This document shows positions 8,873-26,694 of a stretch of 27,702 bases of DNA, in pieces. The notes under the pieces were generated by a model. The model was not told the DNA's origin, did not search any database, and worked only from the letters and a program-made list of their open reading frames with translations. The stretch's first letter is position 1. Each line of letters begins with the position of its first letter. Source of the DNA: a virus (lineage: Duplodnaviria > Caudoviricetes); the IMG/VR virus record IMGVR_UViG_3300011417_000023, positions 1 to 27,702 of that record. The stretch is one strand, 5' to 3'. Made by a program: the position numbers and the translations under genes.

Positions 8873-8966
8873 GGTGCTCCTTTGGCACACGTTGACGCAG
8901 CGGATTCTTGAGTGGGTTACTCACCGCCGGCGGCTATGCCTCCCGTTGGTTCCTTACCCAGTGATC

Positions 8967-8982: not shown

Positions 8983-9417
8983 CTACCCGGTGAGGTGAAA
9001 GAACGGTTCCTGCTGGAACTGGGTACGCAACTCTTCAGTGTACTGATCGGGTGTCGGGATGAGAAAGGGTTGCCCGGGTGTGCCCGGGTGGTTTACCTCG
9101 TGGAACCGGTAGATGCCCGGACCGTACGGGCCGTCCGCCCAGTAGAAGACGAGGAGCGGCGCGTTGGACGCGGCGATGGTGTGTGGCTGAGTCGGGTACT
9201 CCACGTGTTCGGCGTAGTCAGCCTCGGCCGCGATGCGTACGACGACGCGGGTCTCCGACTCATCGACGACGGTCGGGTCCACGATGGAGTCACGCAGGAA
9301 GCCCGTTCGCACGGGTGCGTTCAGGCGTGCCTCATCCGTGAAGTACTGCGCGGTTCGAATCAATGTCTCCCGACACCCGAAGCGAAGCCGTTCACGAAGT
9401 GCGTCTGCGTTAGCCAC
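8983..9417 (-). CDS. HK97 gp10-like virion morphogenesis protein
   Basis: Motifs APVRTGFLRDSI, YAEHVEYPTQPHTI and VNHPGT..QPFL match the gp10-like family pattern. Confidence 0.8.
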   Translation of the reverse strand: MANADALRERLRFGCRETLIRTAQYFTDEARLNAPVRTGFLRDSIVDPTVVDESETRVVVRIAAEADYAEHVEYPTQPHTIAASNAPLLVFYWADGPYGPGIYRFHEVNHPGTPGQPFLIPTPDQYTEELRTQFQQEPFFHLTG

Positions 9418-11680
9418 CGCTGTCGTACTTGTCCATCATCTTGAAGATCTTGTCGGGATCGCCCGTGAAGGTAGCGGTGGAATGTCCCGACGGGCCGGCC
9501 TCACTGGTCATCCGCCCACCCACTCCGGCCTCCTTCGCCATCGCGGCGGCGCCCTGCTTTCCACCTACGACGTCGACATCATTCACCGTGGCACGACCGC
9601 CGTCCACCTGGATGCCGTACGTTTCCTTCAGCTCATCGGCACGGTCTGCACCCAGGCCGAACCCGGTCTTCGCGTCGACCTCAGCCTTGAGGGCGTCCAT
9701 GCGGTCGCCCTGCATCGACCCACGTTCACCCGAGAACTTCTGTGACGTGCCGTCCGTCATCTTCACGGTGTAGGTACGCACCGATGGGTTGTCCGCCGTC
9801 GCCTTCGTCGCGGTGAACTTGACGGACTTCACGTCATCGAGTGACTTACCCTCACCGAGTTGCTTGAGTGCGGCGGCCGTGTCGGGGTGGGAACCGCTAG
9901 ATTCTTTTCCCCCGTCAGACGACCCACCACCTCCCTCCGACGCGAAGCGGCCGTCGTCGTCACGGGCCTGCTCGAACTCCTCCACATCCTCGTCCTCGAA
10001 GACACCGATCGTCGAGCCGACGCGCCCGATCCGTGCAACGCGACGGGCACGTTGGGTTCGCATCACCTGCCCTACCTTCGCCGGATCCTTCTCACGGGCA
10101 AACTCGACGGTCGGAAACACCTCGGCGGCGAGGGTCAACATCGTCGCCTCCATCGCCTCGAAGCGTGCGATGAACTCGTCGTCGGTGCCGGGCACGTCAT
10201 CCTCTGTGAACTCGAGGGTGGCAACGGGTGGGTTCAGCAACGCATCCTCGAGGCGGGCAAGCCGCTCGGCCAGGTTCTCCTCGGGTACGAGGACACCCGC
10301 CGCCACCAGGGCGACCGGAACGTCGGCCACGAGTTCGGCGCGGGCGCGCGGGACCGGGAAGCCCGGGGCGTTGACGGCCAACGCCGCCAGCAGCTCGAGA
10401 CTTCCGCCGATCTTGCGCCAGTCACCCGAGGGTGCGGACGCTCGAAGTGTGCGAAGCGTCGCCTCACTCACGTCGGGTCGAACGGCACCCGCGACCCAGA
10501 TACCGATCGCGTCCTCACCGCAGGCGAGGTCGGCGACGGCGGTACCGGTGTTGTCGTAGTGTCGCGTCACGTCGTGTGGACTGAGGCGGGTCGATGTGGA
10601 CGCGTGACCCGTGCCCAGGGTTAGCGGACCGGTCGCGACCTGCTTGCCCTCGCGGGTCAGCACCGCACCGGTGCGGAAGTACGCGTAGTCACTCTTGCTT
10701 GGCGGCGGGGTGAGGCACTGGCCCAGGTGGCCGGTGTGGCACGTTCCCCAGGTTGCCAGGTGCCCGTACACCCGACCCTCATCCGTGATCGTCAGCGCGG
10801 TCGGGGCGGTCAGGTTCGGGTTCTCGAACCACGTCTCGGGTGGGCGACACGGAATGCAGTCGCCGTCGGCGGACGCAACCAGGTTGACCATGAACTCGGC
10901 GGATGCGGCGACCGCCTCCTCGTTCGCGATGCGGGTGTTTCCGAACGCGGGAAAGGGAAGCACGGTGGTGCCGATGATGACGCCCGACTTGATCAGCTGA
11001 CTCATGCGGTCGCTGCCGTCCTCGGCGAGGGTGACCTCCGTGTCCGCATCGGCGATGTCCGCCGAGTTGCCCGTGAGGTACCCGCCGTCCACGAGAAGGT
11101 CGAGCTTCTCTCCCTCCGCGAGGGGGACGTAGTCACCGCGACCCCAGATCTGCGACGACTTGGGATCCTCGGTGCCGTCCTCGTTGCCGCGCCATGCCTC
11201 ACGGATCGTTCCACCCAACTCCGAACCCTCGTGACCGGGCGTGTTCACGGTCTTGAACATGACCGGGAAGGGCGGGTCGCGCCACGTCAGCCCACCCTGG
11301 GCGAACGAACGCCCGTCGTTGGTGACCTTCGACTCATCGACGATGAGGATCTTGAACGTCTGCTTGCCCTCCTCGGGTGCGCGCTCATCCTCATCCTCGT
11401 CATCCTCAGTGTCGTCGGACGCCGCCTCCTCCTCCTCCTCCTCCTCGCCCTCTTCCTCGTCCTCGTCACTCGAGGCAACGAGTGCGGCGAGCTCGGCGGG
11501 TCCCTCGAACGCGGGCTCCCACGACGCGATGTCGAGGATCAGCTCGTCGGTGATGGGGGTGGAGAGTTCGGAACGTGACAGGGTAGCGACCCGCGCGTTC
11601 GTCTCATCGTCGCGCAGGACGAGCCACCGGTCACCGTCCTCAGCTCGACCAATGACCTGGAACGTGTGCATGATGGTCAT
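9410..11680 (-). CDS. Capsid maturation (prohead) protease, multidomain, with C-terminal extension
   Basis: Start moved to ATG 11680 (RBS GGAGGAG), 756 aa. Protease-like region T-x-DGR-x-F...W-R-x-PP-x-P...GH-x-G...WGRG...SAD...PAF (~10930-11360); second conserved domain PP-x2-WF...GRVYGHLA-x-W-x2-CH...SGDWR...AVN-x-PGF (~10350-10845); lies between portal and capsid. Confidence 0.8.
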   Translation of the reverse strand: MTIMHTFQVIGRAEDGDRWLVLRDDETNARVATLSRSELSTPITDELILDIASWEPAFEGPAELAALVASSDEDEEEGEEEEEEEAASDDTEDDEDEDERAPEEGKQTFKILIVDESKVTNDGRSFAQGGLTWRDPPFPVMFKTVNTPGHEGSELGGTIREAWRGNEDGTEDPKSSQIWGRGDYVPLAEGEKLDLLVDGGYLTGNSADIADADTEVTLAEDGSDRMSQLIKSGVIIGTTVLPFPAFGNTRIANEEAVAASAEFMVNLVASADGDCIPCRPPETWFENPNLTAPTALTITDEGRVYGHLATWGTCHTGHLGQCLTPPPSKSDYAYFRTGAVLTREGKQVATGPLTLGTGHASTSTRLSPHDVTRHYDNTGTAVADLACGEDAIGIWVAGAVRPDVSEATLRTLRASAPSGDWRKIGGSLELLAALAVNAPGFPVPRARAELVADVPVALVAAGVLVPEENLAERLARLEDALLNPPVATLEFTEDDVPGTDDEFIARFEAMEATMLTLAAEVFPTVEFAREKDPAKVGQVMRTQRARRVARIGRVGSTIGVFEDEDVEEFEQARDDDGRFASEGGGGSSDGGKESSGSHPDTAAALKQLGEGKSLDDVKSVKFTATKATADNPSVRTYTVKMTDGTSQKFSGERGSMQGDRMDALKAEVDAKTGFGLGADRADELKETYGIQVDGGRATVNDVDVVGGKQGAAAMAKEAGVGGRMTSEAGPSGHSTATFTGDPDKIFKMMDKYDSGG

Positions 11681-11681
11681 C

Positions 11682-14144
11682 TTACTCCTCCTCACCTGAA
11701 GTGAGCGTGAAGGACTGCACAACGGCGCACAGGCAGCCGTTGTGATCACCCGGGTGGTAGTACTCGGTACCGAGCCAGGCGTCGTCGGGGTTCACCTCGA
11801 GTGCCGGGTCACTCCACGATGTGAACGAGAGCCCGTCGAGGTCGAGGTGCGGGTCGAAGCTGTTGCGCACGGCGGGTCCGTAGTCCCACTGCATACCCAT
11901 CGTCTGCACACCCTGGTCCTCGAGGATGGTCTCGGTGAGGGTGCCGGTGCCGACGCCACCCGTCGGCACCGACGGGTCCTCGCCACCACCTCCACCCGCG
12001 ATGCGAAGCACGTCCCGCACCAAACCCGCGGGCACACGCACGTCATCGAACTCACCGACGGTCGCCGCGCCCGCACCCGAGTCGAACAGACGACGACGGG
12101 AGAAGGCTAGCAGCCCAGCCATGAGTGCACCGGTGGCGACGACACCCGCCTCATCGAAGTGATCGGCGTAGCGGTTCTCGATGTCGTCGTACAGGTCGGC
12201 GAACTCGATGCCGCGTTCCTCCGCGACGGATTGGGCGATGTCCCGCATGGCCGCGACCTGCGCGTCGGCGATCCATCTCTGGGCCTTGGACCGGAAGGGA
12301 ATCAGCGCGGGGGCGAGCAGGTCGTTGTCGCCCAGATCCTCGAGCCCGTCCTCGGGTAGGTCAAGCTCATCGTCTACGGCGAAGCCGAGTGCACGCACCT
12401 TCTCCCGGCCCATGTGACACGCTAGATCCTCGTTGGCTATCCCGTCACTCAGGTGCATGCCGAACTGATCGTGTCGTGCCTTGGTGCGGATCTTCGCGCC
12501 GGCACGCTCGAGTGCACGCTGCACGGCGGCGTCGCCCGCGATCCGCAACCGCTGCATGAGGTCTTGGTCGAGGCGGGCGAGGCGCGTGCCCAATCGTGCA
12601 AGGCGACGACCCGGTGCGGCGGAGGCCAGCATCGTCGGAGGTCCGGGGGTCGTCGTCGTCGCGGCCGGGTTGGGACGATCGGCCGTGGCGGGAATCGCCT
12701 TGGCCGCATCGGACGGCTTGTCGGGATCCTCCATACCGCGCTCCTCAGCGGTCTTATCCTCGAACGGTAGTGCCGGTGGCCCACCCTCGGCCTCAGGCGC
12801 GGCAGGCTCGGGCACCTCGCCCGTGACGGCCATCTTGGCGTCCGCGAGCTTGAGCCCGACCCGCATCGCGTACTCCTTGCCGTCCGGCTTGTCCGTCTCG
12901 GGAAAGTCGGACTCCCTGCGGAGTGCCGCGTCGCTGATAACGATGCGGTCGTGCAGGTCCTTGGCGTCACCCGAGCGATCGGGCTTCACCACCAAACCGG
13001 CCGGGTCGTACCAGATGATGTACTTCTCGGGGTCCTTGACACCCGCGCGCTTAGCCGCCGGCTGCAGGTAGCCGATCGTCAGCGCGTCACACACCAGCTC
13101 AATGAAGGGCTGCAGGTGTGCCTTGAACGTCTGCTCCTCGATCTGCCACGCACCCCAGTGACTGACCTGGCTGGTGCCCAGGAGAACCTCAGGTGGGAGG
13201 TCGATGCCGACGGCCATGTTCTGCAGCGCCGTCTCACGCTTCTCCTTGAAGCGGGCGTCCTGCTTGCGGTCGAGCGTCATGTGCTGAAGCTGATCGAGGG
13301 CGTCGCCCTCGCCGGTCACGATGATCGGCACGACCTCCGAGGCGTGGCCAAACTGCTCGAGCGGTGTGGTGAGTGCACCCTGGAAGGCCTCCATCGTTGG
13401 GGTTGCATCCACACCGTGCACGAGTTGTCCCTGTCCACGCCGCACGTCGTCCGCACCTCGGGCGGGGAGTAGCAGGGAGTTCGGGAACTTGAGGATGCCG
13501 GCGCCGGCGATGCGGCTTCGGGAGAGCGCCTTCTCAGCCTGGGTCATCAGGATCAGAAGTTCGGCGTCATCGAGCACGGTCATCACCGACGAGTCAGCGA
13601 GACCCGAGTACTGCGGGCTCTCGTTCCAGATGCGGGTGACGTACGCGGCCTCGGGAAGCGGCACCTCCACCAGACCCGGGCCTACCCGACGGCCGAAGGA
13701 GCGGTCACCGATGCGGGCGACGAGCTCGTCGATGGAAAGGACGATCCAGTTCTGGGTCTTGTCCGGTTCCTCCCACCCGACGAGGTTCGCCTCGCCGCAG
13801 ATGAAGAGGTTCGCACCGAAGTTGCGCAGCAGGGACGCCTGCCCGCCGCGCTTCGACTTCAGGTTCTTCACCGCCTGCTTGATGGCCTCGTTCGACGTGG
13901 GCTGCGGCTCGGTGCCCGGGTCGTCGTCATCCTCCTCGGCCGCGATGAGCTTGATCTTGGAGAGGGCGTTCCCGACGAACCGACCCGCGAAGTGAAGTGG
14001 ACCCGAGACGCGGTAGTACGCCCACGCACGCTGCTGCCACGGCTGACGCAGAAGCTGACGCTCGATGAGCTGAGTCGTCGACTTGATGTTCAGCTCGGCG
14101 GCTGATGCAACCAGGGAACTGGGAAGCCGCGGACGAAGTGCCAC
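11682..14144 (-). CDS. Portal protein with C-terminal MuF-like (minor head) domain
   Basis: 820 aa; WQ-x2-AW-x-YY, G-x-DLPPEVLLG...HW-x-AWQI-x-E and IWYD match actinophage portals; C-terminus W...H-x2-LDG...HPGDHNGCLC resembles the MuF HxxCxC signature. Confidence 0.85.
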   Translation of the reverse strand: MALRPRLPSSLVASAAELNIKSTTQLIERQLLRQPWQQRAWAYYRVSGPLHFAGRFVGNALSKIKLIAAEEDDDDPGTEPQPTSNEAIKQAVKNLKSKRGGQASLLRNFGANLFICGEANLVGWEEPDKTQNWIVLSIDELVARIGDRSFGRRVGPGLVEVPLPEAAYVTRIWNESPQYSGLADSSVMTVLDDAELLILMTQAEKALSRSRIAGAGILKFPNSLLLPARGADDVRRGQGQLVHGVDATPTMEAFQGALTTPLEQFGHASEVVPIIVTGEGDALDQLQHMTLDRKQDARFKEKRETALQNMAVGIDLPPEVLLGTSQVSHWGAWQIEEQTFKAHLQPFIELVCDALTIGYLQPAAKRAGVKDPEKYIIWYDPAGLVVKPDRSGDAKDLHDRIVISDAALRRESDFPETDKPDGKEYAMRVGLKLADAKMAVTGEVPEPAAPEAEGGPPALPFEDKTAEERGMEDPDKPSDAAKAIPATADRPNPAATTTTPGPPTMLASAAPGRRLARLGTRLARLDQDLMQRLRIAGDAAVQRALERAGAKIRTKARHDQFGMHLSDGIANEDLACHMGREKVRALGFAVDDELDLPEDGLEDLGDNDLLAPALIPFRSKAQRWIADAQVAAMRDIAQSVAEERGIEFADLYDDIENRYADHFDEAGVVATGALMAGLLAFSRRRLFDSGAGAATVGEFDDVRVPAGLVRDVLRIAGGGGGEDPSVPTGGVGTGTLTETILEDQGVQTMGMQWDYGPAVRNSFDPHLDLDGLSFTSWSDPALEVNPDDAWLGTEYYHPGDHNGCLCAVVQSFTLTSGEEE

Positions 14145-15076: not shown

Positions 15077-15095
15077 ACTATATCGAGGTTGTCAA
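15077..15095 (-). promoter_or_regulatory. Possible promoter elements (TTGACA and TATAGT) upstream of the hypothetical-whiB unit
   Basis: AT-rich gap reading TTGACA-ACCTCGA-TATAGT-GTACACAGG-ATG; both hexamers are near consensus but only 7 nt apart, so they cannot be one canonical promoter. Confidence 0.3.
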
Positions 15096-17023: not shown

Positions 17024-17073
17024 GGGTTGACTTCCTAGGGGTGAGGGTGGCTTGCTTGGACCTACGGGGTGGG

Positions 17074-17511
17074 CTAGACCGGAGGCTCGACGACGGGCGG
17101 CGTGTTCGCGATCACGGCATCCTTGAGGGTGCCACTCGAACCGCGAAGTGCGGCGGCTGCCTCGTTGAGCGCGGCCTGGACGGCCGGCTCCTGGGCAACC
17201 TGCGCGGCGAGCTCGTCGATCTTGTCGGCGAGACCCTCGATGAGGGTGACGGCCGACTGGTCGACCGTGGTGTTCTCCTCGACGGCGGCGGTCAGTTCGG
17301 TGAAGTCGATTGCCATTTGGTCCTCCAGGACGTTGACGGAATGTGCAAGTGAGAATGTTCCGAGGGTTAGTGCCGCGAGCTGCGCACGGAACGCCTGCAG
17401 CTCGGCAACCACGTCGGCACCGGGTGCCGCGTGGAAGTGGTAGTTGTAGTTCACGGTGAGGTTGGGACTGGGCATGGGGGGCCAGACCTCCTCGGGCTGT
17501 ATGTCGCTCAC
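17074..17511 (-). CDS. Hypothetical coiled-coil protein
   Basis: 145 aa; GTGA overlap with upstream stop and GGAGG RBS; Ala/Leu/Glu heptad-like C-terminal half (LTAAVEENTTVDQSAVTLIEGLA). Confidence 0.75.
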   Translation of the reverse strand: MSDIQPEEVWPPMPSPNLTVNYNYHFHAAPGADVVAELQAFRAQLAALTLGTFSLAHSVNVLEDQMAIDFTELTAAVEENTTVDQSAVTLIEGLADKIDELAAQVAQEPAVQAALNEAAAALRGSSGTLKDAVIANTPPVVEPPV

Positions 17512-18200
17512 GGTGTACCTCCGTACCCGGTCTTGGGACCGGTGTACCCGGCCTCGTCGGGGAAGGCAAGCTCGGCGACCGCGGTGCGCAGCTGATCGGC
17601 GCGGGTGCGGGTCGTCTTGGCATCCTCACGCGCGGAGTGGGCGACCTGGTTGTCGGGGGTCTCCTCGGCGAACTGCCCGCCGGACCGCCGGGTGCGCGCC
17701 ATCTCTAGCCTCTCTGACATACTCAATGACTGCTCCCTGTTCGCGTGATCCACGAGCGCCGCGATGGCATCAGCCTTCGAGTTGATGCCGCCGAACTTCG
17801 GACGAACCTCTGCAGGGTCCGGTCTGCTCGGGTACTGGGGGATCTTCATTCGATCGTTCGACGCCGTGTCTGCCTTCCAGTACTTGGTATAGCCCTTACC
17901 GATCGCGTAGTTCTTACCGGGTGCCATCTTCTGGTACTCACGCTCGGCTTGGTACACACGACCTAGACGCTCACCGTCCTTGGACTTCACCTCGTAGACG
18001 GGCATCTCCCTGCCCTTGTGATCCGTGAGTGTGCTACGTGTGTAGTCGTTCAGCTCGGACGGGTCAAGAGCCTTGGCCTTGACATCGGAGACGGTAAGTG
18101 GCGCCTTCGTCTCTTCGCCGCCACTTCCACCTCCGCCCTCGGATGCAAACCGCCCGTTGTCGTCTCGCTCCTGGTCTTCGGCGGCGAGGGCGGTTACCAC
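17508..18200 (-). CDS. Hypothetical protein carrying the RDDNGRFAS motif; candidate internal head protein
   Basis: Start moved to GTG 18200, overlapping the terminase end (AAGTGGTAA), 230 aa. Begins MVTALAAEDQERDDNGRFASEGGGG, nearly identical to a segment of the protease. Confidence 0.7.
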   Translation of the reverse strand: MVTALAAEDQERDDNGRFASEGGGGSGGEETKAPLTVSDVKAKALDPSELNDYTRSTLTDHKGREMPVYEVKSKDGERLGRVYQAEREYQKMAPGKNYAIGKGYTKYWKADTASNDRMKIPQYPSRPDPAEVRPKFGGINSKADAIAALVDHANREQSLSMSERLEMARTRRSGGQFAEETPDNQVAHSAREDAKTTRTRADQLRTAVAELAFPDEAGYTGPKTGYGGTP

Positions 18201-19555
18201 TTGTCGTATCCTAGCCCAGCGGGCAGGCTGCCGACGGGGACCGCGAGGCCGCCTCCGTGGTAGGTATCGGTGATGAAGGTACACGCCCACACCAGAGCGT
18301 CGAGACGGTCGGGGCTGAAGTAGCCGTTCCCACGCTCACCCGGGACCCAGGTGCACATCTGATCCTCAAGTTCGGGGAAACTGCCTACGTGGGTAACGTG
18401 GCCCGGGCGCTCATAGAGGTAGGCAATGGGCTGCGCCCGCGCCTCCTTACCCTTGCTGGCCCAGACCGGATGCACCGGCATCCAGCGGTAGGCGCGCTTG
18501 AGCGTCTCCTCGACGAGGTCACCGCCGTTGTTCCGCTCGGCCACGACCGCGTCGGCGCGGTAGCGCTTGTAGGCGCGAAGTACCTGCTTCGCCCACTGGG
18601 CGGGGGTACCCTTCATCGACAGGTCATCGATCACGTACAGCTTGTTCTCGTAGTCGAGACCGACGACGACGATTCCCGTCTCGTCCGCATCCTCACCCGA
18701 TGTCACGGCCGGGTCGACGCCGACCACGACGCGACGCATGTCGGGCAACTCGGACACCGTCACACCGTCCTCGGAGAGGGACACGATGCGCTGGGTACGG
18801 TCACGGTCGATCCAGTCACGCAGCCACAGCGCACCCTCGACGTCCTCGAGGATCAGACCCTCGAGCTCTTGACGTCCAAGCTGGGTGTTTGCGTAGCGAC
18901 GCAGCAGGTAGCGCAGGGTGGACTCGGGCAGGTTCGCCGCGTTGTCCGTGGTGCGTCCGCGTGTGACGATGGTGCGTGGGTCGGCGATGAGGTTCTTGAG
19001 CACGGGTAGCGGACGTGGCGTGGTGGTGACCGCGGCCTGCGGGTGGTCACCGAGGCGTAGACCCATGACGAGCATGTCCCACGTCTCCTGTGGGTACCGG
19101 TGTGCGGCGAACTCCTCCACCCAGGCGAAGTGATGCTCAGGACCGCGCAGGCGATCGGGTTCGGTGGATGAGTACGGGAAGTATGCACTCCCGTTTCGCA
19201 GCCACACCTGACCCGTGGAGCGGTTGTATCGCTTGATCTCGCGCGGGGGCGTCACGGCCAGGATGCCCGACGGCCCCTCGATGCAGACGTCGCGGACCAC
19301 ACCGTGCGTCGGGCCGACGACGGCGATGCGGGTGTTGGGAACCTTCGCCCGCTTCTTCGCCTCCTCCGACGCGCTTCGCGTCTTGCCCGTGCCGCGACCG
19401 GCCAGGTACACCCACACGTCGCAGTCCTCGGTGGGAAAGCGCTGCTCCTCGCGTGACCACACGTTCCAGTCGTACCTGAGTCGATGCAGAAGCTGCGCCT
19501 TACGTTCACCGTCCCAGGAGCGCCAGTCAACCTCATCGAGGATTAGGTTACTCAC
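18194..19555 (-). CDS. terL: Terminase large subunit
   Basis: Walker A LAGRGTGKT, RLRG..Walker B FAWVEE, TTTP coupling motif, RQEL-x-G, nuclease VVVGVDPAV...DETG, and D-x2-DALVWA. Confidence 0.96.
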   Translation of the reverse strand: MSNLILDEVDWRSWDGERKAQLLHRLRYDWNVWSREEQRFPTEDCDVWVYLAGRGTGKTRSASEEAKKRAKVPNTRIAVVGPTHGVVRDVCIEGPSGILAVTPPREIKRYNRSTGQVWLRNGSAYFPYSSTEPDRLRGPEHHFAWVEEFAAHRYPQETWDMLVMGLRLGDHPQAAVTTTPRPLPVLKNLIADPRTIVTRGRTTDNAANLPESTLRYLLRRYANTQLGRQELEGLILEDVEGALWLRDWIDRDRTQRIVSLSEDGVTVSELPDMRRVVVGVDPAVTSGEDADETGIVVVGLDYENKLYVIDDLSMKGTPAQWAKQVLRAYKRYRADAVVAERNNGGDLVEETLKRAYRWMPVHPVWASKGKEARAQPIAYLYERPGHVTHVGSFPELEDQMCTWVPGERGNGYFSPDRLDALVWACTFITDTYHGGGLAVPVGSLPAGLGYDKW

Positions 19556-19847
19556 TCGACACCTCGGCCGGGTTGGGTGGTGGATTCAGTGGCTGCGGGA
19601 TCGCGTCACGTGCGGCGGTTCGCGCATCCACCCACTTCTGAAGTTCGACCGGATCGTAGATCTCGAACTCGGGATTGTCCACACGGTGTTCGCGAATGCC
19701 CTGCGCGTTCTCACCGAACGTGGTGGGCTCGGTCCCGGGTACGACCTCGTCCTCAGTGAGGAAGGTCTCGAACGGGCTCGTGAAGAACTCGTCCTCGACC
19801 TCCTCGATCGTCTTCTCTTGCTTCTTGCGCTTCTTCCTAGGCGGCAC
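19548..19847 (-). CDS. Hypothetical protein upstream of terL
   Basis: Start moved to GTG 19847 (GGAGG 6 nt upstream), 99 aa: basic N-terminus MPPRKKRKK then acidic. Position fits a terminase small subunit but I see no recognisable motif. Confidence 0.6.
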   Translation of the reverse strand: MPPRKKRKKQEKTIEEVEDEFFTSPFETFLTEDEVVPGTEPTTFGENAQGIREHRVDNPEFEIYDPVELQKWVDARTAARDAIPQPLNPPPNPAEVSSE

Positions 19848-22800
19848 GAACTTCCTCCAGCAGTCTCCGCAGCATAGCCGCCGCGCCGACGACGGTGCCA
19901 CCCTGCAATCCTAGTGCTTCCTGCACATCAAGCACGTCGGCCTGAATGGCAACGAGCTTCATCGGGGCGACCCACTGTCCATTCTCCTGGAACACCTCAC
20001 CGGTCTTCACGAGGATCGTGCCACGGGGGAGCAGAAGTTCCTGCTCACCCGGGTGGGCGTTGCCCGGCTTCCACGCGGCGGGCGTACCCGCGGGAACCTC
20101 GATGCGCATCTGCAACCCGTGTGAGCCCCATCCACCACCGATGCTGGTGGACTGGTAGCCCTGGTCCCGCATGATGCTGCCCACGGGCATCTCACGGATC
20201 TTCTGCTCGTAGGAGCCCAGGCCACCACGGTACGTGACGACGGCCTCGGGCGTGCGCTGCCGCATCAGTGCGGAGTCCAGCGACTGGATCATCGAGTTGC
20301 CGGTGGTGACCTTCGATAGGTCGCCCTTGGCGCTTCGCAGCGCGCCGTTCACGGTGCTGTAGTGACCGTCACCGTACTTGTACAGCGCGCTCCACTCACT
20401 CGCGGTGTACCGCGGCTTGCCACCAGCGGTGCCGAACGCCTTGTTACCCCACGCCTCGACCGCGCTGTGACCCTGCGCGCGTGGCACGGTCGCGTTGTTC
20501 GTAGGCTGGTCACCGAGGAACACACCACCCTGCGGAATCGGCGTGATCTGCGGAGCGATGGTCTTACCGGTCGCCGTCGTCTGCTGGGCGAGCGCGACCT
20601 TCTGCTCATCGCTGACGACGACCTTCGACCATCCGCTGGTCTGGTAGTTCTTCTCACCGAAGGTGTACACGACCCGAGTCGTCTCTTGCCCGTGTGGGTT
20701 GATGCCCTTGAGGATCGTAAGCACACCATCGTGCATCACGTAGCGAGAGTAGCCGGACACCGCGATGTCGGGAGCCTTGGACGTCCCGTACTTGGCACTC
20801 TCGATCGCCTTGCGGTCCGCATCGGTGAGCGGGCCGTTCACGTGCTTCACGAACTTGGCGTTCCCGATGTTCTGGTTCAGCAGGGCGAGGCGCTTGTACT
20901 CACGGGACCCGGCCTTCAGACTCTTACCGAACGCGTCCTTCGTCTGGTACGACCCGGGCTTAGGCATCACGCCCGCGCCCTCCTTCGATACCTGCTGCCC
21001 GACGACCGGTACCGGAGACGGTGCGGGCTGCGGCGCGGGCGTAGGCGGGGGCGTGAACTTGAGAAAATCCTCAGATGACATCATTTTCGTGTTGCCGAGC
21101 GCCTGGTAGTCCACGTTCATCTGCATGGGAGGTGGCGCCTGCCAGATCTTCGTCGCGCCGTTACGGTCCAGCTCGCTCAACTTCTCGACCACGGCACCCG
21201 CGGCGTTGAGGGTAAGCACGGTATTTCCAACCTGGAACTTCGAGGTCGGAAAGCCGTTCGCATCCTTCCCGTGCCACTCTGTTGTCGCCGCGCCCTTCTT
21301 TACCTGGGCGATGAGCTGGCGCGCTTCACTTGTGGGCTTCACCGCGTAGGTTGGAAACTTGCCCACACCCGTCTTCGGGTTCCAGTCCTCAACGATGCCA
21401 CTCTTGGGATCGCCGTACACCTTGCCCCCGAGTGCGTTGGTGGTGAAGGACTGAGATGCTGTGGCCTGCATCAGGTTCAGCTTGTCGAGGTTGTCGAGTG
21501 GGTTGGGATCATTCGGATCAAGGCCGGCGTTGGCCCATACCTGGCCCGAGGCGACGCCGTACTGCAGGGCGGTCAAGGCAATGACATCCTGCGTGTGCAA
21601 CTCACTGGAGTGGATGAGTGTATCCATCGTCTTGATGAACTGCTCGTCATTCATCGTACCGCCGGTCGCGAGTGTTGCTGCGCCGCTGTGATGCGTACCC
21701 AGCGTCTCTAGTGCAGATGCTACATCGGGTGCGTAGAGATCTAGGCTCGCCGCCTGGGTCTCGACCGCATTCTTGTAGTTCGTCCACGGTGAAACGTCGT
21801 GCGCATCAAGCTTCGCCTGCAGGTCACCGGCTGCGTTTGAGGTGGTGTTGAGTGCGGCCTGCGCCTGGGAGACACCCGCCTGCATCGGGGGAAGGACTGC
21901 GCCCATCGGGTAGATGCTGTGCTGCAGGTCGAAGAGAACGGACTGCACGTCGAGGTTGGGCACGATCGTCGCACCGCCGAGCTGGTGGTGCACGATGTCG
22001 TTCGCCTGGCCGCTGGTGATCTTGCCGTCCACCAGGGCGTTGTGTACGGCGGCCCAGCCCTGCGTGGTGAGCGCCCCACCCTTCAGCGCCTCGACGACGC
22101 TCTTGTCGGTGGTGTACTCGGTCGCGACCGTGGTATACGCGGCGGACGCGGCCTTTGCGAGTGGGCCCGGGACCTTGTCGTCACCGACGCCCGGAGGCTT
22201 GGCGCCGAAGGTAGGAGGCATGTTACCCGCGTCGGTGGCGATCTCGGCGGCCTTGGCGAGTGCCTCGTTGAAGCTACCTACCTTGTCGTAGTCGTCGAAT
22301 CCGGCGGCGAGGATCTCGTAGACGGCGACGCGCTCCGACGCGGTCAACTTGTGCTGATCGCTGATGACGGCCGCGAGGGTCTGCGGGGTAAGCTTTCCCT
22401 GTTCGTACGCGGTGAGCATCTTCAACGTCGCATTGCCGTTGAACTTCGACTCACCCAACACCGCAGCGGCGATGACGACGGGTGGAATGCCCGAGGAGGG
22501 GTCGAGCAACGCGGCGTACCCGTCCTGCAGGAAGCCGTACTTACCCGAGACCGCAACACTCAGCTTCGTGATGTCACTGGCGAGTTCCTGCGCCTCGGCC
22601 GAGGGTGGGGCGAAGGTCACACCCGTGGAGGGGAAGTTCTGTCCCGCATCCTGCGCGGGCTCGGATGCGAAGGCGAGTTGCTCGAGCGTCTGCTCGACGC
22701 TTGTGTAGGTATCCTCGTAGCCCTGCACGTTCTGGTGGTTGAGGATCGATGCCACCTGGTCGTAGTCAATGAGGTCGGACTGCAGGGCACCGTGCAGCAT

Positions 22801-25800
22801 GCTCCACGCGACCGGGCTGATCATCGCACCATGCTTGGCACTCTCGAGCGCGTCGGTCAAGATCTTGTTGCCGGCGGAGTTGGCGATCAGATGATCGTAG
22901 GTCAACGCCGTCAAGCCGCCCGCGGCTTTCGTGGGGCCCGCGTAGAAGTCCTTGGGAGCGGGAGGGGTGAAGTCGATGGGGCCGACGGATTGCAGCTCGA
23001 GGGGGGTCTGCCCGGGAAGACCCGCGCCCGCGTCGAACTCGGGTGGGATCGGGGTCTCGGCGTTCGCCTGCGCCTCGAGGACGATGCTCGACGGTGTCAA
23101 GCCGGCCTCAAGCTGCTCGACGAAGGCGTCGGCGTTACTGGCGATGTAACCCTCGGGTGCCTCCTGCCCGCCGGCCAGCTGGTACGCGAGTAGGCCCGCG
23201 ACCTCATCATCGGTGAGGATGCCGCCCATGCGCATCTCATCGATGGTGTCCCACTGCTCAAGGTTGAACATTGCCTCGCCCGTCCACGCCGCCGCGACCG
23301 CAAGCGGCTCGGGTGCGGGGGCGTCGGGGTCGTTGGCGAGGTCCCACAACTTCTGGAACCCACCCGCGGTACCCACGGGAATCGCGCCGAAGGTCATCGC
23401 CTCCTGCACCTGTTCGAAGAAGGCCATGTTGCCCGGGTCGTCGGTGACGTAGAAGCTCGCGTTGGGATACCCGCCCGCAGCACCCGGGCCCAGCTCGTTG
23501 TGTGTGGCCTGGGCGAACTCCTCCAGCTCAGTCCACGTGTTCAGCCCGGATGCGGCCATGTCGATGAGGACGGTCGGATCGGTAGGCGGGTACCGGTCCG
23601 CGAGGATGGACATGCCCTCGACGACGGTAAGGGAGCCGTTGACGTACATCTCCTTGATCGTCGCCCACTCCTTGGGCGTGAACTCACGCTCACCCAGCAA
23701 CACCTGCGCGATCGGCACGGTGCCTAGGTTGGTCGAGAGAACGGAGTACGCGTCATTGACGCTCGAGCCCGCGCCGAACTTATCGTCGAGGTAGCCCGTG
23801 AACGCCGTGAAGGATCCGAGCGCGGCGGCCTCGGGTGACGTACCCGTGGGCATGATGCTCGGCTCGGGCGTGCCGGGGAACTCGGCGGGCACGCTGGGAT
23901 CCCAGGGCGCGGGAGGGAAGTGTCCCATGTCGCCGTTCATGACGCTCTCGGCCGCGTCGGGGAGCGCCTGCACAAGTGTGCCGCCAAAGTTGGCGAGCCA
24001 CTCACCCGCCTCGAGGGTACTGCCGCCGAAGTACTGGTCGGCGAACATCGCGATCACGCGGTTCTCGCTGATCTCGCCGTCGGCGAGCATCACGGCGACC
24101 TGGTTCCACTGGTCTTGGTTGAACGTCGCCTCGTCGTTGACGACCGCCGCGATCGCGAGGGGTGTGAAGAGGGCGTCGGCGTCCTCGCTAACGAGCTGCC
24201 CGTACCCACCGCCGGCGGCCGTGCTGATCGTCCCGTTGTCCTCGGACACGATCAGCAGGGAGTACACACTCTCCCCGGCCATCGCGTAGGTGTGCGCGCT
24301 TAGGGTGGGCGTCTGCGCCTCGGACGGAACGACCGTCGCGGTGATGATGCCGGAGGCCGGGCCGTTGAGCACGCCCGTCGCGTAGGGTGGAGCGTCGGGC
24401 GTGAGGGACGCAAGAACGTTGGAGAGGTTGGTGGAGAAGTACTGCGCGGAGGTAATCGCACCGAGGTCGACACCGGCGAGCTTGAACTGCTCACCCACGA
24501 GAGTGGATGCGGCCTCGAGGGAGAGAGTGCCGTCCGCTACCTGGGCCGCGACGAACTCCCACGTGTTGGCCGAGAAAGACGCCTGCCCGGTCGCGACGGC
24601 GGCAAGCTCACCCTGCGGCGCCCCGTACGCCAGCAGGGTCATCAGTCCCGCGGCGGCCGCGGGTGGAATGAGGCCCGCCTTCGAGTCAGCGAGTACACCC
24701 TGGATGAACGCGGTCTTGTCCGTCGCGTAGGAGAGGGTCTTCTCACTCGCGTCGGGAACCGAGGGCGTGGGAGACGCCGCCAGTGCCGCTGCCTCGGCGG
24801 CCGCCGCGTACGACGCGTCCGCAACCTTGCCCGCGAGTGTGTCGGCCATCTGCTCGGTGGACGTCGCCTCCTGCACCGCGGCGTGAGGCTCGAGGGTGGT
24901 GGAGAGCTTGCCGTGCGGCACAAGCTCGTACAGGTGGCCCTTCCCGTCCGGGTTGGGCGTGACGACGAGCTCCTTGAACTTGCTGCCCGGGTACGCGTAC
25001 ACCGTCTGCTTGCCGTAGTTGACCGCGGAGGCGACGGACTTCGCACCCTCGGGTGTGTTCTTCAACTTGTTGAGGGCGTACGCGACGGCCTGACTCTTGG
25101 TGGGGCCACTGTTGAGCAGGCTCTTGATCGGGCCCGCGCCCGGGTTGGCCGCAGCTTGCTGGGCGGCTGCATCCGCGTCCGCCGTCTGGATCGCGGGGGT
25201 CTGGCCGGACTCGTCGACCGCGCCGGGTGTGTCACAGGGCACGAACTGCCCACCGTCCGGGGTGCCCGCGGGCATGTGACACGCCGCCGCGACGAGGGCG
25301 ATGATGCGCTGGGCACGCGCGGGCGAGGTGCGAAGCGCGAAGGGTTCCTCGAGGAGCTTGGTAACGAGGGATGGGATCTGCTCCTGGCGCTCACGCAGGG
25401 TGTCCGCCCACTTCTGAGATGTAAGGTCGCTGATGCCCGCGTCACGCCAGCTCGCCCGCACGTCATCGAGGTCAATGAGTGCGGCGCGCATAAGTGAGGC
25501 CGCCGCGGCCTTGTCCGTCATCTGACCGTACATGGCCTTGCCCTGCTCGGACGTTCGCATACTCTGGGGTTCAACCCACGGCTTGCCCGGTGCGAAGGAG
25601 TCCTTGGGATCGCCCATGGCGCGGTAGGCCATCGCACCCCCGGACTCGATGCGAACGGGGATGCCGTCGGGTGTGACGAGCGTGTTGTCGGCGTTGAGTC
25701 CGTGCACGTCCCAGTGGGAGAGCAGCGCGTCCACCCCGAAGTTCTTCGCGGCCTCAGCCTGCACCTCGGGATGTTGGTTCCACCACGAGGCCGACCGTTG

Positions 25801-26694
25801 CTCGAGGCCCTCGATCTTCTCGGACAGGGTGAACGACTTCGTGCCCGCCTCGTCGAGGAGCACGAAGGTGTTGGGGAAGGGAACGCCCGCCGCTCTGTAG
25901 ACGGAGCCGGAGGCGATTTCGTTCTGTGCGTGGTCGAGGCTCTTGGTCGGCTTGAGCAGGTACGTCTTACCGGTCTCCGGATCCCTGTGCCAGGTGCCAC
26001 CCTGGGAGCCGAGCGGCCCCGGAACCTTGGGCCAGGACCGCACCTCATCCGCGGAGCGGGCGGGTGCACCCGTGGCCTCCTGCGTCGCCTGATCCCCGTC
26101 GTCGTCACCCGAGGTGAACTTGCCGTCCGACCCGCGCGGGTGATCCTCCTCGTTGAAGAGTTCCTGGATCTCACGGGCGCGTGCACGCTGGGCGGACAGG
26201 GGGACGGGAACACCCTCATCCATGAGGAGGGGAACGGCGATCGTCACGGCCCGCGTGGAGGGAGGGATCTGCTCGAGGGAACGGCGCATCGCCGTGGGGC
26301 GTGGGTACTCGCCCAGGGTGACGTGGGGCTCGTACGTGGGGAAGCGGTCGGGAGGGAGGGTCACGCCGCGTCGGGTGAGACGCGCGAGGAAGTCGTCACG
26401 CACACTTGTAAGAAGGGTTCGCTCGGGCTCCGGGATCAGGCTGACGACGCAGGCATCGGGATCCTCGGGAGGGCCGAACACCCGGGTCGTCGGGGCGACC
26501 TCCGTGTGGATGAACGAGCCGTCCTGGCTGGGGAAGACGGTGCGGGACGCCTCCTCCGCGATGATCTTGGCGTCCGCGGGTGTGGCGTCGTCCCCCACGT
26601 AGAGGAGTGTAACGTGAGGTGGGTAGTCGAGGGTATCCCCGTCGTAGGCGTCGGTGATGGGCCCGGACACGGGCATGACGACGCACAGGGCCAT
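19837..26694 (-). CDS. Giant polyvalent protein: 2H phosphoesterase + kinase-like domain + helical repeats + VIP2-like ADP-ribosyltransferase
   Basis: 2285 aa. Two HxT motifs (PHVTLLY, PHVTLG) in aa 1-160; kinase-like region (LGSQGG, YLLK, NE, DALL-x-HWDV-x-G-x3-DN, RIE-x-GG) in aa ~220-450; C-terminal ART with Y...N-x2-LR, VVTYRG, GYQSTS, EQELLLPRG. Confidence 0.88.
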   Translation of the reverse strand: MALCVVMPVSGPITDAYDGDTLDYPPHVTLLYVGDDATPADAKIIAEEASRTVFPSQDGSFIHTEVAPTTRVFGPPEDPDACVVSLIPEPERTLLTSVRDDFLARLTRRGVTLPPDRFPTYEPHVTLGEYPRPTAMRRSLEQIPPSTRAVTIAVPLLMDEGVPVPLSAQRARAREIQELFNEEDHPRGSDGKFTSGDDDGDQATQEATGAPARSADEVRSWPKVPGPLGSQGGTWHRDPETGKTYLLKPTKSLDHAQNEIASGSVYRAAGVPFPNTFVLLDEAGTKSFTLSEKIEGLEQRSASWWNQHPEVQAEAAKNFGVDALLSHWDVHGLNADNTLVTPDGIPVRIESGGAMAYRAMGDPKDSFAPGKPWVEPQSMRTSEQGKAMYGQMTDKAAAASLMRAALIDLDDVRASWRDAGISDLTSQKWADTLRERQEQIPSLVTKLLEEPFALRTSPARAQRIIALVAAACHMPAGTPDGGQFVPCDTPGAVDESGQTPAIQTADADAAAQQAAANPGAGPIKSLLNSGPTKSQAVAYALNKLKNTPEGAKSVASAVNYGKQTVYAYPGSKFKELVVTPNPDGKGHLYELVPHGKLSTTLEPHAAVQEATSTEQMADTLAGKVADASYAAAAEAAALAASPTPSVPDASEKTLSYATDKTAFIQGVLADSKAGLIPPAAAAGLMTLLAYGAPQGELAAVATGQASFSANTWEFVAAQVADGTLSLEAASTLVGEQFKLAGVDLGAITSAQYFSTNLSNVLASLTPDAPPYATGVLNGPASGIITATVVPSEAQTPTLSAHTYAMAGESVYSLLIVSEDNGTISTAAGGGYGQLVSEDADALFTPLAIAAVVNDEATFNQDQWNQVAVMLADGEISENRVIAMFADQYFGGSTLEAGEWLANFGGTLVQALPDAAESVMNGDMGHFPPAPWDPSVPAEFPGTPEPSIMPTGTSPEAAALGSFTAFTGYLDDKFGAGSSVNDAYSVLSTNLGTVPIAQVLLGEREFTPKEWATIKEMYVNGSLTVVEGMSILADRYPPTDPTVLIDMAASGLNTWTELEEFAQATHNELGPGAAGGYPNASFYVTDDPGNMAFFEQVQEAMTFGAIPVGTAGGFQKLWDLANDPDAPAPEPLAVAAAWTGEAMFNLEQWDTIDEMRMGGILTDDEVAGLLAYQLAGGQEAPEGYIASNADAFVEQLEAGLTPSSIVLEAQANAETPIPPEFDAGAGLPGQTPLELQSVGPIDFTPPAPKDFYAGPTKAAGGLTALTYDHLIANSAGNKILTDALESAKHGAMISPVAWSMLHGALQSDLIDYDQVASILNHQNVQGYEDTYTSVEQTLEQLAFASEPAQDAGQNFPSTGVTFAPPSAEAQELASDITKLSVAVSGKYGFLQDGYAALLDPSSGIPPVVIAAAVLGESKFNGNATLKMLTAYEQGKLTPQTLAAVISDQHKLTASERVAVYEILAAGFDDYDKVGSFNEALAKAAEIATDAGNMPPTFGAKPPGVGDDKVPGPLAKAASAAYTTVATEYTTDKSVVEALKGGALTTQGWAAVHNALVDGKITSGQANDIVHHQLGGATIVPNLDVQSVLFDLQHSIYPMGAVLPPMQAGVSQAQAALNTTSNAAGDLQAKLDAHDVSPWTNYKNAVETQAASLDLYAPDVASALETLGTHHSGAATLATGGTMNDEQFIKTMDTLIHSSELHTQDVIALTALQYGVASGQVWANAGLDPNDPNPLDNLDKLNLMQATASQSFTTNALGGKVYGDPKSGIVEDWNPKTGVGKFPTYAVKPTSEARQLIAQVKKGAATTEWHGKDANGFPTSKFQVGNTVLTLNAAGAVVEKLSELDRNGATKIWQAPPPMQMNVDYQALGNTKMMSSEDFLKFTPPPTPAPQPAPSPVPVVGQQVSKEGAGVMPKPGSYQTKDAFGKSLKAGSREYKRLALLNQNIGNAKFVKHVNGPLTDADRKAIESAKYGTSKAPDIAVSGYSRYVMHDGVLTILKGINPHGQETTRVVYTFGEKNYQTSGWSKVVVSDEQKVALAQQTTATGKTIAPQITPIPQGGVFLGDQPTNNATVPRAQGHSAVEAWGNKAFGTAGGKPRYTASEWSALYKYGDGHYSTVNGALRSAKGDLSKVTTGNSMIQSLDSALMRQRTPEAVVTYRGGLGSYEQKIREMPVGSIMRDQGYQSTSIGGGWGSHGLQMRIEVPAGTPAAWKPGNAHPGEQELLLPRGTILVKTGEVFQENGQWVAPMKLVAIQADVLDVQEALGLQGGTVVGAAAMLRRLLEEVRAA
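21559..24625 (-). repeat. About eight degenerate ~45-aa helical repeats inside the giant protein
   Basis: Protein-level consensus A-x4-G-x3-F-x4-W-x2-h-x6-G-x-[LI]-[TS]-x7-h-x2-Q-[YFLH]; not evident as DNA repeats. Confidence 0.7.

Follow-up and report, generated by a model that had tools for sequence, protein, structure and literature searches.

A multi-enzyme chain near the terminase of an uncultured phage

What use a phage would have for several enzymes fused in one very long chain is the question raised by a stretch of 27,702 nucleotides from a Caudoviricetes virus (IMG/VR record IMGVR_UViG_3300011417_000023, hereafter the window), in which a preliminary description had noticed three enzyme motif sets in one open reading frame near the terminase. 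The phage is uncultured and its host is probably actinobacterial; a host search across bacterial genomes returned one MAG contig and one weak match, without identifying a host. The reading frame, P0001, runs from 26694 to 19837 on the minus strand (2285 codons) and starts at an ATG with AGGA 7 nt upstream. Its GC3 was 0.74–0.90 throughout, and full-length copies 100% identical at the protein level were found in three other assemblies (L006, L007 and L012, which may stem from related samples), whose DNA was 99.97–99.99% identical to the window; the L012 copy sits on a contig of 98,966 bp. On the basis of these copies and of the uniform GC3, an assembly chimera, a possibility raised in the preliminary description, was rejected. 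The chain is composed as follows.

19837..26694, minus strand: multi-enzyme ORF P0001, 2285 aa, about 240 kDa; intact reading frame, identical copies in other assemblies
26266..26649, minus strand: 2H phosphoesterase, residues 16–143, H-V-T at 27 and 124 (PF13563)
26116..26199, minus strand: joint 1, Arg-rich segment 166–180, then leader tag 1 (181–193)
25345..26052, minus strand: CtkA/HipA-like kinase fold, residues 215–450 (AlphaFold2 model, Foldseek, VIA, motif table)
25240..25332, minus strand: joint 2, Arg-rich segment 455–469 ending in L-V-A, then leader tag 2 (472–485)
24880..25137, minus strand: D1, small conserved domain, residues 520–605 (35–36% identity to orthologs; no Pfam match)
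21472..24678, minus strand: core of eight acidic, Lys/Arg-poor helical repeats, residues 673–1741 (profile analysis)
20605..21432, minus strand: D2 (1755–1856) and D3 (1940–2030), small conserved domains, weakly alike
19945..20457, minus strand: ADP-ribosyltransferase (ART) of the Alt/VIP2 clade, residues 2080–2250, R / S-T-S / E-x-E (PF03496, phrog_3895, PDB sequence matches)
19840..19911, minus strand: C-terminal tail with an Arg-rich segment resembling those at the joints, kept in orthologs

The entire layout is retained in two distant orthologs, P0002 and P0003. Identity to P0002/P0003 is highest in the kinase (66/64%), followed by the ART (44/42%) and the 2H domain (34/27%), and the repeat core is the part that diverges fastest (25/14%).

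Three enzyme folds in one protein

Segment-by-segment searches of the kind proposed in the preliminary description matched all three folds: 2H by PF13563, the kinase by Foldseek and VIA, and the ART by PF03496. PF13563 passed its cut-off of 27 bits on the isolated domain, with 30.6 bits, but not on the complete chain, with 24.6 bits. The two H-x-[TS] motifs, some 80–100 residues apart, that mark the 2H superfamily are present at H27 and H124, and both are retained as H-V-T in P0002 and P0003. As to the degradation of immune second messengers envisaged in the preliminary description, the profile of the anti-CBASS nuclease Acb1 (PF23474) gave no more than E 0.018 and 15.2 bits, short of its cut-off of 27. 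A PDB sequence search with the 2H domain found no match. For the ART, PF03496 matched residues 2080–2226 with an E-value of 2.6e-21, and the Arg (R2156), the S-T-S (2182–2184) and the catalytic Glu within E2217-x-E2219 lie on a VIP2-like domain, as in the Alt/VIP2 (R-S-E) type; the E-x-E is preserved in both orthologs.

Residues 215–450 matched nothing in Pfam, PHROGs, NCBIfam or PADLOC, and a PDB sequence search with the kinase profile found no match. An AlphaFold2 model of this region (pLDDT 92.8) had as its best structural match, by Foldseek and VIA, the Helicobacter pylori kinase CtkA (Z 15.5, rmsd 3.4, 213 residues aligned), and its VIA score against HipA was Z about 12. The fold is thus like that of CtkA and HipA/HipT, although sequence identity is 12–14%. 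The two-lobed PI3K/HipA-like fold carries the catalytic Lys, helix-C Glu, catalytic Asp and Asn (motif residues K248, E259, H327-W-D329 and N337). It also differs from CtkA and HipA in being embedded in a phage chain and in having Glu350 in place of their Mg-binding Asp (D-x-G). Because of this replacement kinase activity is uncertain, and the Glu, to judge from the motif, may cripple the predicted kinase. The combination of this Glu with H-W-D occurred in 16 of 25 kinase copies, the other nine having Asp with N-[WF]-D. The family is present in 20 GenBank phage records and has been overlooked by standard profile libraries; a literature search, over the texts available, found no published description of it or of the leader tag described below.

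The same unannotated kinase, 26–31% identical in sequence, is encoded by cultured phages, where an ART often forms the C-terminus of the protein. The examples are Yersinia fHe-Yen8-01 gp129, Pseudomonas Jeremy, Morganella Mecenats66 ORF50, Gordonia Forza gp78/gp80, Gordonia Phendrix gp66 and Actinomycetia DSL-LC01. All six cultured kinases that were read have Asn and Asp at the positions where the P0001 subfamily has His and Glu, and in the cultured kinase+ART proteins neither a 2H domain nor a repeat core of the P0001 type was found. Novel features are the 2H–kinase fold–helical repeat–ART architecture, the kinase subfamily of the Glu type and the repeat core without detectable relatives. The preliminary description had not recognised the domain combination; the novelty is narrowed by the fusions of kinase and ART that cultured phages already have.

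The repeat core and the small domains

The repeat core of about 1000 residues reported earlier was resolved by profile analysis into eight units spaced 124–151 aa apart, across about 1070 residues. In a leave-one-out test, no more than 1 of 500 shuffles did as well as the unit concerned for six of the eight units, and units 5 and 8 were not significant (31/500 and 22/500). The repeats are visible by profiles only: DNA-level repeats in the core did not exceed chance, and self-BLASTP of P0001 gave no off-diagonal matches. Searches outside the protein were equally silent, with phmmer (residues 649–1785 against 1.84 billion representatives) recovering P0001 alone, the ESM Atlas yielding no usable match and Pfam nothing credible. 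A SHOCT likeness seen by eye is therefore unsupported. For a one-unit model built from the eight-row alignment of the P0001 repeats themselves (pLDDT 67), Foldseek returned nothing at E<=0.001 and VIA reached a Z of 4.2 at best, which shows neither a new fold nor the absence of one. The P0001 repeats are weakly similar to those of the orthologs: HHalign gave a probability of 23.5% and a score of 18.6 versus at most 9.6 in 40 column shuffles; hmmsearch gave no match.

A reading of D1–D3 as BECR RNases, considered by eye, was likewise unsupported, the sole likeness being a weak one between D2 and D3. A search with residues 1745–2285 found P0001 alone, and was insensitive, since even P0002 and P0003 were missed.

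A leader tag at the joints

A short leader of the type x-D-Q-x-R-D-x-x-G-R-F precedes the kinase and, a second time, the repeat block of P0001. The joint 1 leader is found in the same place in both orthologs and leader tag 2 is invariant in them. In none of the three proteins is the ART separated from the repeats by a leader.

The leader pattern, which was derived from these same proteins, had 22 matches in 19 proteins versus a shuffle mean of 0.34 and a maximum of 2. In 14 of 19 kinase proteins the leader lies just upstream of the kinase, with none inside it, and in 15 of 21 copies in other homologs a Lys stands 7 residues ahead of its Arg. This was also seen in an independent DNA-pattern scan, from whose pattern the residues upstream of the leader had been left out: among 40 distinct contexts, the matching position was Lys in 25, Arg in 4 and Met in 2. 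Family matches of 33 leader-bearing ORFs were to ART (7), portal (6), 2H (4) and PI3/4-kinase (2), and 13 had none. Three whole gene clusters (L009, L013 and L061) contain the pro-part, the Lys and the leader. In other phages the leader opens swappable modules, usually after a lysine, and given this, head packaging and cutting of P0001 are likely.

The cleavage signal itself was sought in the pattern [LIVA]-[VT]-A-[ASG], chosen after viewing the capsid protein and the protease, in which it occurs 6 times versus 0.9 expected and 4 times versus 1.1 expected, respectively. The pattern also occurs 3 times versus 0.5 expected in the ribonucleotide reductase reading, and is not enriched in P0001 (4 versus 4.3 expected). 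Joint 2 fits it, unlike joint 1 and the joints of the orthologs; in Forza gp78 and Phendrix gp66 the leader follows an L-T-A-A site. No single cleavage consensus covering both joints could be defined, leaving the scissile bonds undefined, and the available parts of the literature on Rosebush, Patience and related capsids offered no usable cleavage rule.

Genomic setting

The head genes of the window are all on the same strand as P0001.

19548..19847, minus strand: 99-aa acidic ORF, GTG overlapping the P0001 stop, GGAGG upstream; candidate inhibitor or accessory protein
18194..19555, minus strand: terminase large subunit (Pfam, PHROGs)
17508..18200, minus strand: 230-aa ORF, a few residues and then a leader; second candidate cargo gene
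11682..14144, minus strand: portal protein (phrog_776, E 2.5e-107)
9410..11680, minus strand: head maturation protease region, C-terminal module opened by a leader (phrog_859, phrog_18402)
7232..8875, minus strand: major capsid (hexamer) protein (phrog_777, NF033847)

The terminase gene is two genes downstream of P0001, the 99-aa ORF lying between them; this ORF had no PHROGs or NCBIfam match and its longer 117-aa reading no Pfam or PHROGs match. The leader of the protease region is at residue 596 of a 779-aa reading, and the [LIVA]-[VT]-A-[ASG] sites of the capsid protein are abundant in its N-terminal part; a PDB sequence search with the capsid protein found no match. Primase genes immediately precede P0001, and the same block has an inserted ribonucleotide reductase gene, so that location alone is no proof of packaging. 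Among the relatives, the kinase is near portal, MuF or capsid genes in L057, L060 and L061, immediately follows the portal gene in Gordonia phages, and is fused to MuF in P0007, P0008 and P0018. Yersinia phage fHe-Yen8-01 has a kinase+ART protein of 2146 aa that bears the database note 'phage particle associated protein'; it is without the leader pattern and the 2H domain, its kinase is only 26% identical to that of P0001, and a literature search found no corresponding proteomics paper.

Relation to known head-packaged proteins

The general concept of head-packaged enzyme cargo is already known from T4 Alt, MuF and polyvalent proteins, and the likeness to these proposed in the preliminary description gained support from the folds, PF03496 and PHROGs. 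According to the available text of Iyer et al. 2017 (PMC5512222), polyvalent proteins combine 2–15 biochemically unrelated domains per chain, 2H, ART and kinase classes among them, are encoded with portal–terminase head genes and are predicted to be injected. P0001 resembles them in joining 2H, kinase fold and ART in one chain of a portal–terminase phage, with virion genes near. By the same text, the polyvalent-clade ART is of the H-Y-D type (PF18760), unlike the R2156, S-T-S, E-x-E type of P0001, and polyvalent kinases are without the C-terminal subdomain, whereas both lobes are present in the P0001 model, 213 of its 236 residues aligning to CtkA. A zincin metallopeptidase motif was not found in P0001, nor a description of the leader tag in the main text available for PMC5512222.

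With T4 Alt and IPI–III, which have a capsid targeting sequence and are cut by gp21 (available parts of PMC7411985 and PMC5512222), P0001 shares an R-S-E ART and predicted packaging, processing and delivery with the DNA. In those sources, however, Alt consists of a single enzyme behind an N-terminal propeptide, whereas P0001 has three enzymes, internal joints and a leader after each putative cut; an N-terminal propeptide is lacking, 2H beginning by residue 16 and the candidate signals being internal. By capsid and protease type the P0001 phage is unrelated to T4. MuF toxins and MuF/portal/protease–ART fusions, as described in the available parts of PMC12226406 and PMC9503650, share with P0001 the head-gene location, a C-terminal VIP2-like ART and a small downstream gene, and the SEA-PHAGES annotation 'capsid maturation protease and VIP2-like ADP-ribosyltransferase' denotes a comparable fusion. 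MuF, portal and protease domains are absent from P0001 itself, which had no PF04233/TIGR01641 match in scans that detect MuF in P0008.

A proposed role as processed head cargo

From the domains, active-site motifs, head-module location, conserved layout and leader-opened modules, all directly observed, we consider it probable that P0001 is internal head cargo, cut by the prohead protease at its two tagged joints and entering the host with the DNA. Sequence features make it likely that the protein is packaged, processed into three fragments and delivered into the host in order to disarm it, and packaging is backed indirectly by the particle-associated note of the kinase+ART relative and by the shared leader. 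The Arg-rich segments at the joints and the C-terminus may aid prohead loading, like T4 capsid-targeting propeptides. Cuts right ahead of each leader would release pieces of about 20 kDa (2H), 31 kDa (kinase) and 189 kDa (D1–repeats–D2–D3–ART). The preliminary description had envisaged separate effectors; cutting is plausible at two joints, but the ART would remain attached to the repeats because no tag precedes it in P0001 or its orthologs. After entry, the ART would, like T4 Alt, attach ADP-ribose to arginines of host proteins, redirecting transcription or translation; the kinase would phosphorylate host proteins, as HipA and CtkA do, perhaps with altered metal use; and 2H could open phosphodiesters of the cyclic or 2'-5' kind, for example in defence signals or at damaged RNA ends. 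The acidic, Lys/Arg-poor repeats might be a non-catalytic carrier that holds the basic ART off the DNA and restrains it until delivery, a role suggested by their composition.

P0001 might instead be packaged and delivered whole or nearly so, its tags serving in loading or DNA binding, as in the virion RNA polymerase of N4, which enters the head without processing. The want of one cleavage consensus suiting both joints and the untagged ART agree with this, as do the unprocessed polyvalent proteins described in the available section 8 of PMC5512222. In most copies elsewhere, however, the leader is preceded by a fixed Lys or by a start Met, the prediction for an N-terminal signal unmasked by a protease, and whole delivery appears unlikely to us. 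Still less probable is a late non-virion protein acting in shutdown of host or competitor or in superinfection exclusion, with the 99-aa protein as its inhibitor. Such an arrangement would suit the small coupled acidic ORF, the position between primase and terminase genes with a ribonucleotide reductase gene in the block, and the linked immunity genes of MuF toxins (available parts of PMC12226406), but it sits poorly with the fusion of the leader to portal, MuF and protease proteins and with a kinase+ART relative recorded as particle-associated.

We give slightly less credence yet to a mainly structural protein, in which the core would be an ejection or core protein for DNA crossing the thick actinobacterial envelope and the enzymes passengers, the kinase being a dead pseudokinase. 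Half of the chain is indeed a non-enzymatic helical repeat, present in both orthologs too, and Glu does replace the Mg-binding Asp. Against this, it is the core that diverges fastest and the kinase that is most conserved, P0001 has no strongly hydrophobic segment (best 19-residue window 1.57), and no match to the core was seen in the cultured relatives closest by capsid.

A bolder extension of the processed-cargo reading, which we hold as tentative and rather doubtful, is a portable two-part cargo code used across unrelated head types: a basic pro-segment ending in a site for the prohead protease, and an R-D-x-x-G-R-F-type leader that, as the new N-terminus, would grip DNA or portal and eject any enzyme behind it. 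P0001 would then be a three-piece cassette delivering an undescribed CtkA-like kinase of the Glu type, altered in its use of metal or substrate, together with an ART carried by acidic repeats with a new fold. A portable loading or ejection tag, if true, would be useful for placing chosen proteins in phage heads.

Head-packaged enzymes work ahead of phage gene expression and are a main counter-defence route, mostly unannotated, and the short leader allows candidate cargo modules to be recognised from sequence. The cultured Gordonia phages Forza, Phendrix and GodonK carry both kinase and tag, so that packaging, cutting and activity are testable now.

Integrity of the gene and its neighbourhood

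The protein P0001 is encoded by an ORF of 2285 codons on the minus strand, from 26694 to 19837, in a record of 27.7 kb with an estimated completeness of 25%. An assembly chimera, a concern raised in the preliminary description, is an unlikely source of this ORF, because the protein was found 100% identical over its entire length in three other assemblies (L006, L007 and L012, the last a contig of 98,966 bp), which may stem from related samples; the DNA of the window was 99.97–99.99% identical to that of matching assemblies, and codon-position GC was even from end to end of the gene. Partial copies of the protein were present in contigs L008, L010 and L011. The neighbouring genes were as follows.

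Immediately upstream of P0001: primase-polymerase gene
Downstream, same strand: 99-aa ORF
Downstream, same strand: terminase
Downstream, same strand: 230-aa ORF, with the leader at its start
17074–17511, minus strand: acidic ORF of 145 aa flanked by the 230-aa tagged ORF and the reductase gene, all of its matches being weak
15092–17629, minus strand: class II ribonucleotide reductase, inserted between the terminase and portal genes
Downstream, same strand: DUF1360 gene
11682–14144, minus strand, downstream: portal
Downstream, same strand: head protease, with a C-terminal module opened by the leader
Downstream, same strand: capsid hexamer protein
Downstream, same strand: phrog_779 protein

The real start of the reductase probably lies about 200 codons into its longest reading. 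Of the 820 residues of the portal protein, the portal match covers those up to about residue 560; the remaining 260 at the C-terminus had no Pfam match and end in H-x-x-C-x-C, which we take to be reminiscent of MuF tails. Contig L007, which extends beyond the upstream end of the window, encodes ahead of the primase-polymerase gene a P-loop protein of 626 aa (L007:1772–3652) that by eye looks like a D5-type primase-helicase. The capsid protein matched 367 phage records, with Gordonia (193), Mycobacterium (78), Microbacterium (65) and Streptomyces (17) in the lead and phage DSL-LC01 (46%) at the top among the matches listed. Because actinobacterial-phage records lead these matches, we infer a probably actinobacterial host.

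Domain architecture of P0001

The domain assignments of P0001 are well supported. Residues 16–143 form a 2H phosphoesterase with two H-V-T motifs, whose Pfam score was above the cut-off for the isolated domain and below it in the whole chain; the Acb1 profile reached an E-value of only 0.018. Residues 2080–2250 form an ADP-ribosyltransferase (ART) of the Alt/VIP2 clade, with Arg2156, S-T-S and E2217-x-E2219, and this domain is basic (calculated pI 9.4). The E-x-E motif in this clade indicates arginine as the acceptor.

Between them, residues 673–1741 comprise eight repeat units spaced by 124–151 aa, six of which passed a leave-one-out test. The structure model of one unit was all-helical and confident in its centre. 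The core is acidic (Lys/Arg 3.2% versus Asp/Glu 11.7%; calculated pI near 4.1) and is an orphan, no relatives being found by sequence searches or by a fold search with the one-unit model. The scans made gave no assignment for D1–D3, small conserved domains on either side of the core.

Two distant orthologs, P0002 (2707 aa) and P0003 (2786 aa), share with P0001 the order 2H, leader, kinase, leader, D1, helical repeat core, D2–D3, ART and tail. Identity of P0001 to P0002 and P0003 was 66 and 64% in the kinase, 44 and 42% in the ART, and 25 and 14% in the core. The phosphoesterase, kinase-like domain, repeats and ART placed in one chain by the preliminary description were thus all recovered; the leader tag was absent from that account.

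A kinase family missed by profile libraries

Residues 215–450 had no match among Pfam, PHROGs, NCBIfam and PADLOC models, so that standard profile libraries fail to reveal this kinase family. A structure model built on a 16-row alignment (pLDDT 92.8, pTM 0.90) matched best CtkA of H. pylori (Foldseek E 1.3e-5; VIA Z 15.5, rmsd 3.4, 213 aligned), followed by HipA/HipT (VIA Z about 12). In the ESM Atlas, unnamed, mostly viral clusters were retrieved at 0.97, the nearest named clusters being HipA_2 and PI3_PI4_kinase. The domain has the catalytic Lys, helix-C Glu, Asp and Asn in place, but the Mg-binding Asp position is occupied by Glu350. Among 25 copies read, 16 combined Glu with H-W-D, and nine, of the Asp type and including all six copies from cultured phages, combined Asp with N-[WF]-D. 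The Glu and H-W-D changes probably share a single origin in one clade, and their co-occurrence is therefore not independent evidence. No other part of the chain is as well conserved as the kinase, which speaks for a retained function.

The kinase on its own is a mobile module: in the 16 other retrieved proteins its partners were ART, MuF, Zeta, Nudix, 2H, DUF3626 or intein domains. It was found in 20 GenBank phage records, including those of Gordonia phages Phendrix and Forza, where it comes after the portal gene.

A leader tag shared with head-module proteins

A leader of the type x-D-Q-x-R-D-x-x-G-R-F occurs in P0001 at residues 181–193, with a variant at 472–485, and also opens the 230-aa ORF and the protease C-terminal module. 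Its core R-x-x-x-G-R-F presumably resembles the motifs with which NF-YA and CCT domains contact the minor groove of DNA. The homolog-derived pattern, drawn from the homologs themselves, gave 22 matches in 19 proteins versus 0.34 expected. The leader lay immediately ahead of the kinase in 14 of the 19 and inside it in none; no leader precedes the ART in P0001, P0002 or P0003. Of 21 leader copies in homologs from outside this family, 15 had a Lys at a fixed distance ahead of the leader.

As an independent test, viral contigs were scanned with a degenerate pattern of the ten leader residues only, yielding 39 loci and 40 distinct contexts, one from this phage. The matching upstream position held Lys in 25 of the 40, Arg in four and Met in two. 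Annotation of 33 of 38 ORFs (five were omitted as duplicated, derived from this phage or very short) gave family matches to portal (6), ART (7), 2H (4), PI3/4-kinase (2) or none (13). Three loci (L009, L013 and L061) carry many separate genes with a pro-part, Lys and leader. This arrangement would be as expected for a signal exposed by a head protease.

Two clusters (L009:5576–12450 and L013:5412–8851) consist of small genes that lack annotation and each encode a pro-part with a terminal Lys, then the leader; they are candidate cargo sets. Another type of leader, K-G-[DE]-x-x-G-H-P-F-R-G-N-Q, is placed in the same way in six or more adjacent genes of a head module (L061:7257–19604; proteins P0015 and P0018). 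On one 36-kb viral contig (L015–L019), consecutive ORFs carry up to five leaders each, about 210 residues apart, several modules being ART domains in an ART array.

Proposed mechanism

Beyond the domain assignments, all steps of the mechanism are those that we infer. Most likely, P0001 would be loaded into the prohead, cut at two joints (an Arg-rich segment plus leader, before the kinase and before the repeat block) and delivered with the DNA. Cutting at both joints would release pieces of about 20, 31 and 189 kDa (computed sizes), which would enter the host together with the DNA. There the ART may modify host proteins in the manner of T4 Alt, the kinase may phosphorylate host targets and the 2H domain may open cyclic or 2'-5' phosphodiesters, with the acidic repeats as putative carrier and restraint for the ART.

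The motif [LIVA]-[VT]-A-[ASG], picked after the fact and enriched in the capsid protein and protease, fits joint 2 only and not joint 1 in this phage; it scores in the ribonucleotide reductase reading too and is not enriched in P0001. Delivery of P0001 without cutting is unlikely. It is more doubtful that P0001 acts as a late toxin outside the virion, paired with an inhibitor, and a mainly structural role in ejection is the least probable of the three.

Comparison with known systems

By analogy, P0001 may work like polyvalent proteins and T4 Alt, the latter a precedent described in PMC7411985. It falls within the broad definition of polyvalent proteins in PMC5512222, but its ART and kinase lie outside the clades described there; unlike MuF proteins, it lacks a MuF domain. 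PMC9503650 already treats ARTs and 2H domains as likely cargo when they are fused to head proteins or encoded close to them. At the level of titles, no paper on this kinase or leader was found in the open-access literature, and the supplements of PMC5512222 may list related domains. The combination that the preliminary description did not recognise is new as an architecture, as are its Glu-type kinase subfamily and orphan repeat core, but the cargo concept and the kinase and ART pairing are already known from other phages. What sets P0001 above the ordinary is the kinase family missed by libraries, the orphan core and a tag that is amenable to testing in Gordonia phages already in culture.

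Kinase and ART occur in one chain in Pseudomonas phage Jeremy, Morganella phage Mecenats66 and Yersinia phage fHe-Yen8-01. The fHe-Yen8-01 protein is noted as 'particle-associated' in its database record, for which no source paper was found in the literature searched. In fHe-Yen8-01 (L066:8713–10015), Mecenats66 (L067:8742–9966) and Jeremy (L005:9722–11066), the kinase and ART gene is followed by a gene of about 160 aa and a Nudix or phosphatase gene; both products are noted as particle-associated in fHe-Yen8-01. Phage DSL-LC01 encodes, between its portal and protease genes (L004:5003–14872), a 3289-aa hypothetical protein with an Asp-type kinase and several x-T-A-A sites.
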